Assembly: GCA_002305795.1 (NCBI GenBank)
Contig: DBRF01000006.1
Span: 3,409-67,408 of the forward strand
Direction: 5' to 3'
DNA from: Ruminococcaceae bacterium UBA1375
Lineage (GTDB): Bacteria; Bacillota; Clostridia; Oscillospirales; Ruminococcaceae
DNA length: 64,000 nt
Shown here: in pieces, positions 17,065 through 62,976 of the stretch
Position numbering within the stretch: position 1 is the first letter of the stretch
How the letters are laid out: each line of letters opens with the position of its first letter
The notes under the pieces: model-generated
The model's database searches: none
The model's input: the letters and a program-made list of their open reading frames with translations, nothing else
Told to the model about the DNA's origin: nothing
Made by a program: the position numbers and the translations under genes

Positions 17065-18222
17065 GTGGCGGATAAGAGAGATTATTACGAGGTGCTGGGG
17101 GTGCAAAAAGGCGCCGGGCAGGACGAAATTAAAAAAGCCTACCACAAGCTGGCCAAGCAGTACCACCCCGACCTGCACCCTGGGGACAAAGAAGCAGAAC
17201 AAAAATTCAAAGAGGTCAACGAAGCCTACGAGGTGCTCAGCGATGAGCAGAAGCGGGCCAAGTACGACCGGTTCGGCCACGCCGGGGTGGACCCCAACTA
17301 CGGGGCAGGCGGTCCGGGAGGGGCCGGGGGATTTGGCGGTTTCTCCGATTTAGGGGACATCTTCGAGAGCTTCTTCGGAGGCGGTTTCGGGGGCAGCACC
17401 CGCCGTGCCAACCCCAACGCACCCCGCCGGGGCAGCGACATCCGCACCAGCATTGTGCTGGACTTTATGGAAGCCTGCCACGGCTGTACCAAAACCGTAA
17501 CCATCAACCGGCAGGAAAACTGTTCCGCCTGCCACGGCACCGGCTGCGCTGCGGGGAAAAGCCCCCAGACCTGTCCGGACTGCCATGGCACCGGCCAGGT
17601 GCAGTACGTTCAGCGCACGCCTCTGGGCAGCATGAGCACCTCCCGGCCCTGTCCCAAGTGCGGGGGCAAGGGACAGATCATCAACGACCCCTGCGCCAAG
17701 TGCGGCGGAACGGGGCGGGAAAATGTCCGCAAGACCATCCAGGTCAACGTCCCTGCCGGCATCGACGACGGCCAGACCTTAGCGGTCCGGGGCCAGGGCA
17801 ATGCCGGATCCAACGGCGGCCCTGCCGGGGACTTGGGGGTTGCGGTGACGGTGCGGCCTGACCCGGTGTTTGAGCGGGACGGCTACGACATCCATTGCGA
17901 CTTCCCGGTGAGCTTCTACCAGGCGGTGGCGGGGTGCGAGCTGAAGGTGCCCACCATCGACGGGGAAGTGAAGTACACCATGCCCGCCGGCACTCAGCCC
18001 GGCACGGTGTTCCGGCTGCGGGGCCGGGGGGTCACCGCCCTCAACGGCCGGGGCCGGGGGGACCAGTACGTCCACATTGTGGTGGAGGTGCCCAAAAACG
18101 TCCGGGGCGAGAGCTTGGCAAAACTCAAAGAGTTTGAAAACACCTTAAACGAAAAAAATTACGCCAAGCAAAAAAGTTTCTTTGACAAATTGAAACAGCG
18201 GTTCGGAACGTCAGGAAACTGA
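17065..18222 (+). CDS. dnaJ: molecular chaperone DnaJ
   Basis: 385 aa with a GTG start. It has a J domain (YYEVLGV..HPD), a G/F region and four CxxCxGxG zinc-finger repeats. The stop codon lies inside hairpin 18205-18228. Confidence 0.95.
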
Positions 18223-18230
18223 CGTTCCTC

Positions 18231-18453
18231 AGACTGTAGAAAAAGTAAAATTTAGGTCAAGCCTTTTTAAAGGCTTGTGGGGTTGCAAGGGGCAAAGCCC
18301 CTGCAATGGAAATTATTTGTCCTAAAAATTCTTATTTCTGTCTTATTCTTGCAAAAAAGTTGTGGAAGTGACGAACTTGAATCCGCCCGCCCAACGGCGT
18401 AGAGCCGAGGGCGGGTCAATCTGGAAACATCCGAACCCTTTTTCGACAAGCTG
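18231..18453 (+). repeat. LE-family mosaic element (copy LE-1) in the dnaJ 3' region
   Basis: It starts AGACTGTAGAAAAAGTAAAATTTAGGTCAAGCC and ends CTTTTTCGACAAGCTG. It is collinear with 46023-46292 and flanked by two copies of the hairpin ggaacgtcagg(a/t)aactgacgttcc (18205-18228 and 18455-18478). Confidence 0.8.
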
Positions 18454-18630
18454 CGGAACGTCAGGTAACTGACGTTCCTGAGTCCGCCCTTTGCGGCCAA
18501 AAGTCGGGCCGCAATTTCGCCCGAGGGCGAAAACCGGGTGAACTTTTGTTGAAAGAAACGGAAAACCATATTTTTGGTTTGTTGGAAACAATCCACGGGA
18601 ATCGAACCGGTTCGCCGTCGGATACTAAGG

Positions 18631-31689: not shown

Positions 31690-31808
31690 GCGGGGGAAAT
31701 TGCGCCGTTGGTGGGGCAGATTCCGGATAGCTGTTTCTATCACTTTATTTCAAATCTGTTTTTAATTCTGTCTAAATATAGAAATTTACATTATAATTTC
31801 GATACAGA

Positions 31809-31924
31809 GACTTTGCCCCTTAGAATCCACTGCGTGGGATTCGACCCCACCATGCCTTCGAAAAACGATCTTCGATCTTATTTTCTAAAAGGCTTGACCT
31901 AAACTTTACTTTTTCAACACTCTA
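31809..31924 (-). repeat. LE-family fragment (5' half, reverse orientation) with T-arm-like submotif
   Basis: The reverse complement reads ctAGAGTGTTGAAAAAGTAAAGTTTAGGTCAAGCCTTTTAG...CGAAGGCATGGTGGGGTCGAATCCCACGCAGTGGATTCTAAGGGGCAAAG, collinear with 46023-46135. Confidence 0.75.
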
Positions 31925-44453: not shown

Positions 44454-45347
44454 ATGGAACCCACAGGATTCAAAACCGCCTTGTTCGGCTTTCACAAAGC
44501 CGACGTACTGCAGTTTATTGCCGATTCCAACCGGGAATACCAGCAGCAGCTGGAAGAAGAACAGCAGCAGACTCAGGCGGTGCAAACACAGCTGGAGCAG
44601 GCCAAAAAGCAGCTGGAAGAAGCACGCCGGCAGCTGGCCCGTCAGCAGGAACGGGCGGACAAAATGGACGGGCTGATCAAACAGCAAAACGCCGACAACG
44701 AGCGCTTAAAGCAGTCCGGCATTGCCATGGAAAAGTCCATGCTGGAGCTGCGCAACGAGAACAGCCGCCTGACCAGCCAGGTGGCGGAGCAGAAAAAGAA
44801 GTCCCAGGCGCTGGAAAAGGCGGGGTACGACGCCAACACCCTGCTGGAAGAAGCCAAAAAGCGGGCGGACCACCTGGTCAGCCAGGCCAAGGAGCAGGCG
44901 GCTCAGGTTTTGGAACAGGCCAAGGAGCAGGCCCAGCAGGGCCTCACCGCCGCCAAGGAAAAGGCCGCTCAGCTGGAAGAGCAGGGAAGGCAGGCCGCTC
45001 AGAAACTCCAGGAAGAAGCTATGCAGAAGGCCGCTCAGGTGAGCCAGCAGCTGCTGGAGCAGCAGGAACAGCAGGCCACCGGCCAGATTATCCAGGACGC
45101 CCAGCAGGAGGTCCAGCGGATTTTAAGCGGGGTGCAGTCCCGCTCCGCCCAGGCCAACCGCCGGTTTGACGCCTTTTACCAGGAGATGGAGCAGTCCATT
45201 ACCAAGGTCATGGGGCAGTTGGAGGAGATGGAGCAGCGGATGCGCTCCCTGGACCAGACCATGGCCAAGGCGGAACAGCCCAAAGAAACTTCGGATGCTT
45301 CCCAGGAGGAGGACAGCTTAAACCGTTTCCTCTCCCACCTGTTTTAA
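44454..45347 (+). CDS. coiled-coil protein with DivIVA-like N-terminal motif
   Basis: 297 aa from ATG 44454 (SD aAAGGAGcatgacc). FKTALFGFHKADVLQFIAD resembles the F..a.rGY..eeVd.Fl motif of DivIVA-domain proteins. The rest is Q/E/A/K-rich coiled coil. Confidence 0.6.
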   Translation: MEPTGFKTALFGFHKADVLQFIADSNREYQQQLEEEQQQTQAVQTQLEQAKKQLEEARRQLARQQERADKMDGLIKQQNADNERLKQSGIAMEKSMLELRNENSRLTSQVAEQKKKSQALEKAGYDANTLLEEAKKRADHLVSQAKEQAAQVLEQAKEQAQQGLTAAKEKAAQLEEQGRQAAQKLQEEAMQKAAQVSQQLLEQQEQQATGQIIQDAQQEVQRILSGVQSRSAQANRRFDAFYQEMEQSITKVMGQLEEMEQRMRSLDQTMAKAEQPKETSDASQEEDSLNRFLSHLF

Positions 45348-45381
45348 GTGATTTTTTACCTCGAAAGGAGCCGACCACATC

Positions 45382-45954
45382 GTGGCAACCTATCATCTCA
45401 CCACCCGGCAGCTGCCGGAATTTGCACCCAAACTTCGCATTTTGGACCGGGTGTTTTTGTCCGGCACGGTATACACCTCCCGGGACGCCGCCCACAAGCG
45501 GATCTTCGCCCTGTTGGAGGAGGGAAAGGAACCGCCTTTTCCATTAAAGGGCAGCGTGGTGTACTACGCCGGTCCCACCCCGGAACCGGAAGGGCTGCCC
45601 ATCGGTTCCTGCGGCCCCACCACCTCCGGCCGGATGGACCCCTACGCCCCCAAGCTGCTGGACCTTGGGATGTGCGCCATGGTGGGTAAAGGGGAACGTG
45701 CCCAGCCGGTGAAGGATGCCATTGTCCGCAACGGCGGGGTGTACTTCTGCGCCATCGGGGGCGCCGGTGCGCTGGCCTGCCGGTGCATCAAGAGCTGCGA
45801 AGTGATTGCTTTTGAGGACTTGGGCTGCGAGTCAGTGAAAAAGCTGGAGTTTGAGGAGTTTCCCCTGATTGTGGCCATCGACGCCGCCGGGGGGGACATC
45901 TTTGAGCAAGGGCCTAAGGCGTATTTGGAGCAGAAAAAGGCTGGCGGGGCGTGA
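45382..45954 (+). CDS. Fe-S hydro-lyase beta subunit (class I fumarate hydratase / L(+)-tartrate dehydratase beta type)
   Basis: 190 aa with a GTG start. Motifs: LSGTVYTSRDAAHKRI, GPTTSGRMDPYAPKLL and MVGKGERA. Confidence 0.85.
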   Translation: MATYHLTTRQLPEFAPKLRILDRVFLSGTVYTSRDAAHKRIFALLEEGKEPPFPLKGSVVYYAGPTPEPEGLPIGSCGPTTSGRMDPYAPKLLDLGMCAMVGKGERAQPVKDAIVRNGGVYFCAIGGAGALACRCIKSCEVIAFEDLGCESVKKLEFEEFPLIVAIDAAGGDIFEQGPKAYLEQKKAGGA

Positions 45955-46022
45955 ACAAGCTCACTGCTGCTGTTTTGAAATCGCATCTGGAAAGGAAAAA
46001 GGACGCTGGGAGGCGTCCTTTT

Positions 46023-46292
46023 AGACTGTAGAAAAAGTAAAGTTTAGGTCCAGCCTTTTAGGAAATAAAATCGAAGATTTTTTTCCGAAGGCATGGTGGG
46101 GGCGAATCCCACGCAGTGGATTCTAGGGGGCAAAGCCCCTGCAATGGAGATTGTTTTATCCAAAAACTCTTTCTTCTGCCTTATTGTTTGAAAAAAGTTG
46201 TGGAAACAACAAATCGGAATCCGCCCGCCCAACGGCGTAGAGCCGAGGGCGGGTCAATGCGGAAACATCCGAACACTTTTTCGACAAGCTGA
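46023..46292 (+). repeat. LE-family mosaic element (copy LE-2) in the 3' region of the hydro-lyase gene
   Basis: It starts AGACTGTAGAAAAAGTAAAGTTTAGGTCCAGCC and ends CTTTTTCGACAAGCTG. It contains the T-arm-like submotif (46085-46123). It is flanked by two copies of the hairpin aaggacgctgggagg(c/t)gtcctt (45999-46020 and 46293-46314). Confidence 0.8.
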
Positions 46293-46537
46293 AAGGACGC
46301 TGGGAGGTGTCCTTTGAGTTTTGTTTGTTTTGATATTGTTGAATATTTGTTTGAAAAGCCCGGTAAACAGTCCGTGGATTGACATGAAATCTCATTTTTT
46401 GTTATAATACCATCATGGCTTTTGCCTACTGGTATTTACCGGGGCAGAAGGATGAAGCCAATCGATCAATGATCTATAACGGTAGCGGTTTGCCCCTTAC
46501 ATCCGTCAAGTGATTTTGCTTGAAGGGAGGGGGTGGT

Positions 46538-46618
46538 ATGACATGGGAAGAATTTTTCATGTTAGTACAGGCGATTTTGTCTGCGATTCTGGTTTATTAT
46601 GCCCGGAAGAACAAGTAA
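46538..46618 (+). CDS. small hydrophobic peptide, putative type I toxin, module D
   Basis: ATG 46538 follows the SD gaaGGGAGGGGGtggt. The 26 codons give MTWEEFFMLVQAILSAILVYYARKNK. Promoter: TTGACA 46379-46384, 18 nt, TATAAT 46403-46408. Confidence 0.7.
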   Translation: MTWEEFFMLVQAILSAILVYYARKNK

Positions 46619-46710
46619 GACAAAATAGAAGTAACCGCTCAATCGGCACTTAGAGCGGTTACTCGATAACATAGACTCTAGGGGCTAGCCGTTTCCGGCT
46701 TCGTCCTTCT
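46618..46710 (-). ncRNA. putative antitoxin sRNA convergent to toxin D
   Basis: Minus promoter TTGACA (46744-46739), 16 nt, TATAAT (46722-46717). The transcript reads AAAAACAGAAGGACGAAGCCGGAAACGGCTAGCCCCTAGAG.. and ends at hairpin 46631-46662 plus ttctattttg. Confidence 0.5.
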
Positions 46711-46912
46711 GTTTTTATTATACCCATTTTTCCGCATTTGTCAAGGCCGGCTTTTGTCCGGGGAAATCTTAAAATTGCCTTTTTATCCTTGTAAAAGTTC
46801 CCCCAAACCATCTTGCAAAATTTTCCCCTATGCCTTACAATAAGGGTATCATTTGGGGAAGGGGCGCATAGGTAAGCTACCTCTTCCTGCATAACAGGAG
46901 GGAAATCCCGGT

Positions 46913-47791
46913 ATGTCCACCGATTTATTGGGAGAATTAAAACAACGCTACAACCAGTTTTCCAAAAGTCAGCGCCGCATCGCTGACTACATTTTGGAGC
47001 ATTACAGCAAAGCCGCCTACCTCACCGCTGCCCGGCTGGGGCAGCAGGCCCAGGTCAGCGAATCCACCGTGGTACGGTTCGCCTTTGAGCTGGGGTTTGA
47101 CGGCTACCCTGCGCTCCAGGCCGCTTTGCAGGAGACGGTGCGCAGCAAGCTCACCAGCCTCCAGCGGATGGAGGTGGCGGGGGACCGGCAGGAAGAAGGG
47201 GAACCGGTGCTGGACCAGGTGCTGAATAAGGACGTGGAGCAGATTTACCGCACCCTGGAACAGACCGACCGGGCCGCCTTTGCCGGGGCGGTGGAGTCCA
47301 TCCACCAGGCCAAAACCGTCTACCTGCTGGCCAGCGGCAGCGCCGCTTTTCTGGCCGGGTTTCTCAACTTCTACTTCCGGCTGGTGCTGCCCAACGTGCG
47401 CCTGATTCAAAGCGCCTCCGCCTCGGAGCTGTTTGAGCAAATCCTCCGGGTGGGGAAGGGGGACATTGTCATCGGCATTTCCTTCCCCCGGTACTCCAAA
47501 AAGACGGTAAACGCTCTGCGCTACGCCCGGAAAAACGGCGCTCAGGTGGTGGCCATCACCGACAGCGAGTTTTCTCCCCTGGCGGCCCAGGCGGACTACC
47601 TGCTTTTGGCCCGCAGCGACATGGTGTCCTTTGCGGACAGCCTGGTGGCGCCCCTGAGTTTGATCAACGCCCTGATTGCGGCGGTGGGACAACGCCGGCA
47701 GGAGGAGACCCGCCGGGTGTTCGACCGGCTGGAGGAAATCTGGGCGGAGTACGACGTCTACGCCAAGGCGGAGGAAGCAGATGGAATATGA
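46913..47791 (+). CDS. MurR/RpiR family transcriptional regulator (HTH + SIS domain)
   Basis: 292 aa with an N-terminal HTH_6 block (SKSQRRIADYILEH..AARLGQQAQVSESTVVRF) and a C-terminal SIS domain. Confidence 0.85.
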   Translation: MSTDLLGELKQRYNQFSKSQRRIADYILEHYSKAAYLTAARLGQQAQVSESTVVRFAFELGFDGYPALQAALQETVRSKLTSLQRMEVAGDRQEEGEPVLDQVLNKDVEQIYRTLEQTDRAAFAGAVESIHQAKTVYLLASGSAAFLAGFLNFYFRLVLPNVRLIQSASASELFEQILRVGKGDIVIGISFPRYSKKTVNALRYARKNGAQVVAITDSEFSPLAAQADYLLLARSDMVSFADSLVAPLSLINALIAAVGQRRQEETRRVFDRLEEIWAEYDVYAKAEEADGI

Positions 47792-61824: not shown

Positions 61825-62106
61825 GGAGGTTGTGGAAAAAGGATTCGGTATGTTCGAAACAAGCCTTCGGCATGTTTCCGGATTGACCTGCCCTTGGCTT
61901 TACGCCATTGGGCAGGCGGATTCCGTTATACTATGCCACTTACTATGCTACATGGATGCACTGCCACGGACCCTTATAATAGACTCCGTATTGTTTGCGG
62001 GGCTTTGCCCCAGAATCCACTGTGTGGGATTCGACCCCACCATGCCTTCGGAAAAAAAGATTTTCAATCTTGTTTTCCTAAAAGGCTGGACCTAAACTTT
62101 ACGTTT
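61825..62106 (-). repeat. LE-family mosaic element (copy LE-3) between the rfbD stop codon and its terminator
   Basis: The minus strand reads gagCTGTAAaaacGTAAAGTTTAGGTCCAGCCTTTTAGG...CCGAAGGCATGGTGGGGTCGAATCCCACACAGTGGATTC...GGAATCCGCCTGCCCAATGGCGTAAAGCCAAGGGCAGGTCAATCCGGAAACAT...CTTTTTCCACAACCTC. It is collinear with LE-2. Confidence 0.8.
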
Positions 62107-62976
62107 TTACAGCTCTACCGGGTGATATTCCCCTACGTTTTTCAAGAACCGGGTCAGGGCGTCCTGCCAGGCAGGCAGGCGGTGGAATCCGGCCTGTTCC
62201 AGCTTGTCCTTGCTCATCCGGGAGTTTTTGGGGCGCACCGCCTTGGAAGCGCCGTACTCCTCGCTGGTCACCGGCTTGACGGTGACCTTTTTCCCGGCCT
62301 GGCGGAAGATCTCCACCGCAAAGTCGTACCAGCTGCACAGACCTTCGTTGGTGACGTGGTAGGTGCCGTACTGCTCGGTGCGGATCATCTCACACACCAG
62401 CTTGGCCACGTCGGGGCAGTAGGTGGGGGAACCAATCTGGTCGTTGACCACCGTTAAGGTGTCGTGGGTTTCACTCAGCCGCAGCATGGTGCGGATAAAG
62501 TTGTGGCCGTGGTCGGCAAACACCCAGCTGATCCGCAGGGTGAAGTACTTGGTAAGCAGCTCCTTCACTGCCTGTTCCCCTTCCAGCTTGGTAAGGCCGT
62601 AGAAGTTGCTGGGGCCGGTGGCGTCATCCTCCACATAGGGGGTGGTGCCGGTGCCGGGGAAGACGTAGTCGGTGGAGAAGTACATGAACTTGGCGTCCAG
62701 CTCTTTGGCGCACTGGGCCATGTTCCGGGTGCCCTCCACGTTTACTTTCCGGCAAACCTCCCGGCCTTCGTCCTCCGCCTTGTCCACGGCGGTGTAGGCG
62801 GCGCAGTGGACGATGACGTCCGGGGCATAGCCCAGCACTGCCTGTCGCACCGCTTTTTCATCGGTGAGGTCGAAGTCGTCGATGTCTACTCCCCAACAGG
62901 GGACGTTTTGTGCTTCCAGACAGGCGACCACATCGCCGCCCAGCTGTCCTTTCACGCCGGTGACTAATACTTTCAT
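62107..62976 (-). CDS. rfbD: dTDP-4-dehydrorhamnose reductase
   Basis: 289 aa with MKVLVTGVKGQLG and YGLTKLEGE (YxxxK). Confidence 0.92.
   Translation of the reverse strand: MKVLVTGVKGQLGGDVVACLEAQNVPCWGVDIDDFDLTDEKAVRQAVLGYAPDVIVHCAAYTAVDKAEDEGREVCRKVNVEGTRNMAQCAKELDAKFMYFSTDYVFPGTGTTPYVEDDATGPSNFYGLTKLEGEQAVKELLTKYFTLRISWVFADHGHNFIRTMLRLSETHDTLTVVNDQIGSPTYCPDVAKLVCEMIRTEQYGTYHVTNEGLCSWYDFAVEIFRQAGKKVTVKPVTSEEYGASKAVRPKNSRMSKDKLEQAGFHRLPAWQDALTRFLKNVGEYHPVEL

Follow-up and report, generated by a model that had tools for sequence, protein, structure and literature searches.

LE-2 and related short elements with IS1182-type ends appear to duplicate the hairpins at which they insert

Downstream of a hydro-lyase beta subunit gene of Ruminococcaceae bacterium UBA1375, a 22-nt hairpin at positions 45999-46020 occurs again at 46293-46314, and a 270-bp element, LE-2, fills the gap between the two copies exactly (Table 1; positions are those of the window, the whole 64,000-nt stretch of DNA that was analysed). 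How a small element came to lie between two copies of a hairpin belonging to its neighbor is the question raised by this locus. The original prediction had described the repeat, with its single C-to-T change, and the exact fit of LE-2, and both are confirmed here; the full extent of the duplication is 24 nt, with one extra A·T pair on each side of the 22-nt hairpin. We propose, at a probability of roughly 85%, that LE-2 is a non-autonomous MITE with IS1182-family ends, and that the hairpin copy is a target duplication that follows the shape of the stem-loop.

The hairpin has the properties of an intrinsic terminator, with a GC-rich stem-loop and a T-rich tail located 44 nt past the stop of the Fumerase_C gene, and is the predicted terminator of the hydro-lyase beta gene. 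The proximal copy lacks its own T-tract, a T and then AGACTG coming next, whereas the distal copy runs into a T-rich tail at 46316-46334. Only the distal copy passed a terminator scan (stem, then GAGTTTTGTT), in agreement with the earlier claim that a T-rich tract stands behind this copy alone. The C-to-T change in the distal copy keeps the pairing, as G-U/G-T. When the hairpin pattern was searched with up to three mismatches, exactly two sites were found in the 64-kb window and none in 100 shuffles.

Table 1. Features of the LE-2 locus and other LE copies in the window.
Feature	Position	Strand	Remarks
Hydro-lyase beta subunit ORF (Fe-S, fumarase/tartrate dehydratase type)	45382-45954	+	Pfam Fumerase_C, E=1.6e-53
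Proximal (left) hairpin copy AAAGGACGCTGGGAGGCGTCCTTT	45998-46021	+	10-bp stem, 4-nt loop; fold -14.5 kcal/mol
LE-2, 270 bp, non-coding, probable MITE of IS1182 type, long form (modules A, B, C)	46022-46291	+	
LE-2 left terminal inverted repeat TAGACTGTAGAAAAAG (consensus CAGACTGTAGAAAAAG)	46022-46037	+	IRR type (..TGTAGAAAAA..) of full-length IS
GC-rich core GGAATCCGCCCGCCCAACGGCGTAGAGCCGAGGGCGGGTCAAT, 43 nt, 8-bp stem around smaller hairpin	46216-46258	+	alignment and pair counts
LE-2 right terminal inverted repeat CTTTTTCGACAAGCTG	46276-46291	+	IRL type (..TGTCGAAAAAG)
Distal (right) hairpin copy AAAGGACGCTGGGAGGTGTCCTTT	46292-46315	+	one C>T relative to proximal copy
Third, partial hairpin copy: 3' arm CGTCCTT and CTGTTTTT (also given as CTGTTTTTATT)	46702-46716	+	alignment to relative G004
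LE-1, 224-bp short form (18230-18453), 3' end of dnaJ	18204-18479	+	between two copies of 26-nt hairpin CGGAACGTCAGGWAACTGACGTTCCT
LE copy, G000:C11:35111-35332	31703-31924	-	left end and modules A, B kept; right part decayed
LE copy, G000:C11:65234-65535	61826-62127	-	diverged (75% identity); flank duplication unrecognisable

Genomes of the same genus provide a view of such loci without the element. LE is present elsewhere in the genomes of four relatives, and at three loci (LE-2, LE-1/dnaJ and C5:41044) relatives carry one hairpin and no LE. Two of these are clean empty sites: at dnaJ, the single hairpin of G002 is followed by the sequence found behind the distal copy in the window, and at the C5:41044 locus of the UBA1375 genome (G000), G001 has a single hairpin with identical downstream sequence. 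At the LE-2 locus, G004 (L034, G004:C54) has one hairpin (AAGGACGCTGTGAGGCGTCCTT) directly followed by CCGTTTTTATT, while G003 has one hairpin (…CTGCGAGG…) and then a different element of ~300 bp beginning CAGCTTGTCGAGAAAC, which weakens its reading as an empty site. The original prediction had named relatives with two hairpin copies and no LE as the observation that would speak against it; the relatives at all three loci have the single hairpin instead, bearing out the idea that LE was placed between a stem and T-rich sequence while the stem was copied. The single-hairpin state of G004 could possibly be the outcome of a deletion between hairpin copies, and this genome is also without the small toxin-antitoxin-like module that follows LE-2 in the window.

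The history of the T-tract at this locus may be more involved. The CCGTTTTTATT sequence that directly follows the hairpin of G004 aligns to the window downstream of the toxin-antitoxin-like module, at the third, partial hairpin copy (46702-46716), and this alignment suggests that the T-tract there is probably the ancestral U-tract of the hairpin. The T-rich tract behind the distal copy may not be the ancestral one. The module (module D, in the region 46316-46716) also sits between the hairpin and the apparent ancestral T-tract, and may have been either inserted at the window locus or deleted in G004.

Two other rearrangements were seen at hairpins of these relatives. The element on the G003 hairpin (L033, G003:C136; orthologous to ~45990-46380 of the window) has an IS1182-like end, CAGCTTGTCGAGAAAC, and the hairpin is not duplicated; on the right side of the element, 35 nt of its left end recur as a direct repeat, which resembles the tandem duplications of the left end that are reported for IS1272. 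Use of the same hairpin by a second element with IS1182-like ends, in another species, fits hairpin targeting. The dnaJ terminator of G004 (L044, G004:C71:4000-4400; orthologous to ~18150-18560) carries a tandem duplication of ~95 nt without LE, comprising the hairpin and ~70 nt downstream, with an 18-nt filler (atcccaaaaattacagta) between the copies; it may be a footprint left by excision, or else a long duplication whose extent was set by structure.

A BLAST search with LE-2 against its own genome (1.5 Mb in 23 contigs, 83% complete) returned 52 segments at ~40 loci, and the LE family accounts for roughly 0.6% of the genome. The elements are small (220-275 bp), non-coding and multicopy, and the ORFs within LE-2 are all shorter than 80 aa. 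Three modules can be distinguished, A (positions 1-39), B (~59-124) and C (105-272); the commonest type is a short form of ~222 bp consisting of A and C, and further subfamilies combine the same ends with different interiors. The terminal inverted repeats are imperfect and 16 bp long, (C)AGACTGTAGAAAAAG on the left and CTTTTTCGACAAGCTG on the right (reverse complement CAGCTTGTCGAAAAAG), and the consensus ends CAGACTGTAGAAAAAG...CTTTTTCGACAAGCTG match as inverted repeats at 13 of 16 positions. Pairs of LE ends separated by 1-4 kb were also sought in this genome, and the pairs found were MITE-sized only.

Further variation was observed within and around LE. Module B holds a GAATCCCACGCAGTGGAT unit that is tandemly repeated in some copies; the 20-nt unit GATACGAATCCCACGCAGTG occurs as two to three tandem copies in the elements at G000:C4:51146-51252, G000:C11:98486-98616 and G000:C18:2957-3257, and some copies carry an additional hairpin block as an insert (GGCAACGAAACGTCCTAGGACGTTTC). 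Outside the window, at G000:C11:103230-103700, a MITE with LE-type ends lies within a ~95-nt unit (GTTGGGTTTCCCTCGGCTTTTGCGAAG…AATGATTGCTTTTAGCAATCATT) belonging to a repeat family of its own, present dozens of times in the genus, and a similar hairpin, AATGATTGCCATAGGCAATCATT, is the target at G000:C12:23820.

The duplication seen at LE-2 is common among LE copies. We aligned 45 nt from either side of the 17 copies that have both ends, taking a score of at least 30 as a clear repeat. Twelve of them are flanked, at 0-2 nt from the element, by a duplicated whole stem-loop specific to the locus, with repeat lengths of 19, 20, 22, 22, 23, 24, 25, 26, 25/28, 30, 31/32 and 32 nt, while this score is reached at only 9 of 2997 positions drawn at random from that genome (0.3%). 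From two loci with the same geometry and different hairpins, the original prediction had argued that coincidence was unlikely, and this comparison strengthens the argument. Three repeat pairs are perfect, five have one base difference and four are more diverged. The layout is constant: a stem-loop, a C (sometimes with one more base), AGACTGTAG...CAAGCTG, and the stem-loop again, with each repeat spanning the maximal stem from foot to foot within 1-2 nt. The hairpin copy is, then, a structure-defined target-site duplication. Of the five remaining copies, one shows a repeat in decay, another has a 7-bp repeat (AAGTTTT) where there is no hairpin, and three lack any repeat, these last three counting against our reading.

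The differences between hairpin copies follow no simple rule. At C5, LE-2 and C12:23820 a C on the left corresponds to a T on the right, the T improving the stem in one case and weakening it in the others; at other loci the copies differ in loop positions. The notion that the C-to-T change is directional was dropped.

Elements sharing the ends of LE were sought in 60 genomes of the same family with the degenerate pattern CAGNYTGTNGAAAAAG, which matched 20 times in the UBA1375 genome, 50 times in G053 and 8 times in G080, and rarely in a control with the reversed pattern. A Pfam DDE_Tnp_1_6 search located ORFs ~1 kb from single matches in G043 and G050, each belonging to a full-length insertion sequence. 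That of G043 (G043:C21; L074 467-1975) is 1509 bp long with a 463-aa ORF and is flanked on both sides by a 28-nt hairpin duplication, AAACCGCTTGACATATTTG(T/C)CAAGCGGT; that of G050 (G050:C5; L075 645-2206) is 1562 bp long with a 482-aa ORF and is flanked on both sides by a perfect 39-nt hairpin, AAAGGCTGCTGCATTTCCGAAAGAAATGCAGCAGCCTTT. A third, in G055, has a broken ORF and hairpins that differ on the two sides, and the whole hairpin is duplicated at two of the three full-length elements. The 463- and 482-aa proteins match the NCBIfam IS1182 family transposase model NF033551 at 397 and 389 bits (cut-off 270), and have the Pfam domains DUF772, DDE_Tnp_1_6 and DDE_Tnp_1.

The terminal repeats of these insertion sequences, CAGNCTGTCGAAAAAG / CAGNYTGTAGAAAAAC, are common with LE over 16 bp. 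The LE ends CAGACTGTAGAAAAAG / CAGCTTGTCGAAAAAG match the IRR / IRL of the elements in G043, G050 and G055, which represent three genera, including an end-specific A/C at position 9. The asymmetry of the ends is also kept: upstream of the transposase gene the end reads …TGTCGAAAAAG, at the opposite side …TGTAGAAAAAC, and in LE the right end is of the TGTCGAAAAAG type and the left of the TGTAGAAAAA type. Because the terminal repeats and the hairpin duplications are common to LE and the full-length elements, we interpret LE as a MITE of IS1182 type, a step beyond the original prediction, which had missed the terminal inverted repeats. The resemblance is confined to the 16-bp ends, a point against this interpretation: LE is 220-275 bp long and has no ORF, and a BLAST comparison of LE with the full-length elements found no similarity outside the ends. 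With unrelated interiors, LE does not look like an insertion sequence shortened by internal deletion. An interior unlike that of the parent element is common among MITEs, and is not demanded by most definitions.

Other MITEs in the family were found with the same pattern. G080 has one of 160 bp with a perfect 30-nt palindrome duplicated as a hairpin on either side. The 50 matches in G053 were considered as a possible multicopy insertion sequence, which was rejected: most lie 37-55 nt from contig ends, and the readable copies are ~400-bp MITEs with long perfect terminal repeats. This family numbers about 25 copies, has 55-nt perfect terminal repeats and accounts for many contig breaks; one truncated copy abuts a 5'-truncated cas5-like ORF rather than a transposase (L064, G053:C67:1600-5600), with cas8c and cas7 next, in what we take, by eye, to be a type I-C cas operon.

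From these features we infer the following route for LE. An IS1182-family DDE transposase, supplied in trans, would bind the two 16-bp terminal inverted repeats and recognize its target by shape rather than sequence, as a DNA stem-loop, typically the palindrome of an intrinsic terminator, that is either extruded into a cruciform or accessible in hairpin form. Staggers of 19-39 bp would be hard for a rigid transposase complex to make on B-form DNA, whereas cruciform extrusion of a palindrome, or its folding in single-stranded DNA, would bring the two feet next to each other. The two 3' ends of the element could then be joined to the two strands at the stem's 5' feet; the joints would be staggered by the whole palindrome, and gap repair would copy the complete stem-loop to either side of the element. 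The length of the duplication would track that of the hairpin (19-39 nt), and the downstream T-tract would stay behind the distal copy only.

Part of the element itself is strongly conserved, and raises the possibility of a role beyond transposition. Across 21 copies (LE-2 and 20 paralogues) the 43-nt GC-rich core hardly varies, while the rest of LE diverges by 15-25%, the A/T-rich part strongly; the core may be a subterminal site bound by a transposase, or else an RNA element. LE-2 and LE-1 are both, by their geometry, in sense orientation to the upstream gene, and since the proximal hairpin lacks a T-tract and the distal copy has a T-rich tail, the hydro-lyase transcript probably runs past the proximal copy and through LE-2, ending at the distal copy. 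LE could in principle be a 3'-UTR or small-RNA module under host selection, for example a stable processed RNA or an insulator of terminators, kept or spread by recombination for the sake of what its transcript does, with the hairpin duplication as a by-product of copying into terminators. The near-invariant core, the sense orientation at these two loci and a read-through RNA that folds far better than shuffles (z = -6.5) are consistent with such a module. However, a strong fold is expected because the element has inverted ends and stands within a duplicated palindrome, and the core could equally be bound by a transposase. Over 45000-47500, an Rfam search at E<=1 matched no family, ruling out a known riboswitch, small RNA or group II intron at the locus, and a promoter scan detected no promoter-like site within LE-2. 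No compensatory changes were found in the internal hairpins of the 21 copies, a comparison to which the invariant core is uninformative.

The orientation of other copies also argues against a host module. On crude ORF calls, 8 are only in sense and ~5 only in antisense to their neighbors, ~9 have convergent genes on their two sides and 7 have divergent ones. The original prediction had placed LE inside the 3' UTR of the upstream gene in the sense orientation; this holds for LE-2 by its geometry and fails as a rule for the family, in which orientations are mixed. Transposition already explains the terminal repeats, the duplications and the empty sites, and we therefore consider a host-selected module improbable, though the least improbable of the alternatives to a MITE of IS1182 type.

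How does this compare with what is known of the family? Direct repeats of IS1182 elements reportedly measure 0-60 bp in the ISfinder/Siguier family table, with palindromic targets for some members, a statement on palindromes quoted from Siguier et al. by both Wan 2017 (PMC5678879) and Furi 2016 (PMC4923244). In staphylococci, the IS1182-family elements IS1272 and TnSha1 target hairpins, many of them terminators confirmed by RNA-seq, without specificity for primary sequence (PMC5678879, PMC4923244); they insert in both orientations (PMC4923244) and repeatedly at one hairpin. The model of Wan et al. for IS1272 includes a pathway (pathway b) in which joining at the 5' feet results in the entire stem-loop being duplicated (PMC5678879), whereas the outcome observed is loss of the stem-loop without duplication, for IS1272 (PMC5678879) as for TnSha1 (Furi et al., PMC4923244). 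LE and its full-length relatives thus share the use of hairpins with IS1272 and TnSha1 and differ in the result, the stem-loop being kept and duplicated at LE where it is deleted or replaced by the staphylococcal elements. That the best-studied member of the family deletes its target (PMC5678879) is a point to be set against our reading.

An independent precedent for the duplicating outcome, according to the papers citing it (PMC2853133, PMC3317919), is IS1630 of Mycoplasma fermentans, an IS30-family element described by Calcutt, Lavrrar & Wise (1999, J Bacteriol 181:7597), which duplicates target inverted repeats of 19-26 bp. In these accounts it differs from LE in its transposase family, its 27-bp ends and in being an autonomous insertion sequence of 1.2-1.4 kb rather than a MITE. 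One could imagine from this example that the enzyme moving LE comes from a different transposase family, one with the habit of duplicating inverted repeats, IS30-type for instance, and that the match of LE to IS1182 ends is coincidental; searches with PF13751 and with the G043 transposase found no IS1182-type transposase in the five genomes of the genus (G000-G004). All five are incomplete draft bins (82-86% complete), so that absence from the genus does not follow. Multicopy insertion sequences are frequently lost from fragmented assemblies. Against such a coincidence, the 16-bp LE ends, with their IRL/IRR-specific base, recur in three genera, bounding three independent IS1182-family elements on both sides, and IS1182 elements with these ends show the same hairpin duplication, making a transposase of another family very improbable.

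Least probable of all, and only barely credible to us, is that the flanking repeats represent the attachment-site cores used by a site-specific (tyrosine or serine) recombinase, or that they arose without a transposase, when replication slipped or switched template at hairpins. Insertion by an integrase typically yields direct repeats of 20-30 bp, and the ~95-nt tandem duplication at dnaJ in G004 includes a hairpin and no LE. From one locus to the next, however, the repeats at LE are entirely different in sequence and length and are always the local palindrome; LE also ends in inverted repeats, and DDE transposases are encoded by its relatives. A site-specific recombinase would require one common core, and site-specific recombination was rejected because the duplicated sequences have none.

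Other systems share parts of this behavior. Class C group II introns home just after the stem-loops of intrinsic terminators, recognizing structure; they use a ribozyme and a reverse transcriptase, have no inverted-repeat ends and produce no target duplication. Terminator stem-loops as sites are the feature they have in common with LE, whose locus has no intron match in Rfam. In spacer integration by Cas1-Cas2, and in casposons, staggered joining at the borders of a palindromic repeat duplicates the repeat, an analogy to LE only, as the enzyme is unrelated, the repeat length fixed and the target sequence-specific. The BOX and RUP elements of pneumococcus (PMC3049150), Correia, ERIC and REP/BIME resemble LE in being small, intergenic, often modular and highly folded, LE itself being modular with a tandemly variable 20-nt unit in module B; these elements make short fixed duplications (e.g., TA) or none, and none of them copies a whole host hairpin.

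LE is a new and abundant MITE family of an uncultured genus of gut Oscillospiraceae, and the principle by which it inserts is already known: duplication of hairpins by LE is an insertion habit of IS1182-family transposons. This accounts for the LE repeats in the genome and for their location at gene ends. It is doubtful, if somewhat less so than a host-selected module taken as the whole explanation, that LE is more than a parasite, its core serving as a functional module (a site for hijacking a phage- or plasmid-borne transposase, or a structured 3'-UTR or small RNA) with termination rewired at dozens of genes; if true, by splitting terminator stems from their U-tracts LE would systematically rewire termination and read-through in a gut bacterium with a small genome. 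In annotation, such elements make twin hairpins, displace U-tracts and break assemblies, as in G053, and may be mistaken for regulatory RNAs or attachment sites. In the IS1272 model, duplication of a whole stem-loop was only a predicted pathway, and LE and its relatives add many clean natural cases in which it is directed by shape, with empty sites and with both full-length insertion sequences and MITEs. We see the value of these elements as catalogue entries and as a resource for studying how structure-specific DDE transposases work.
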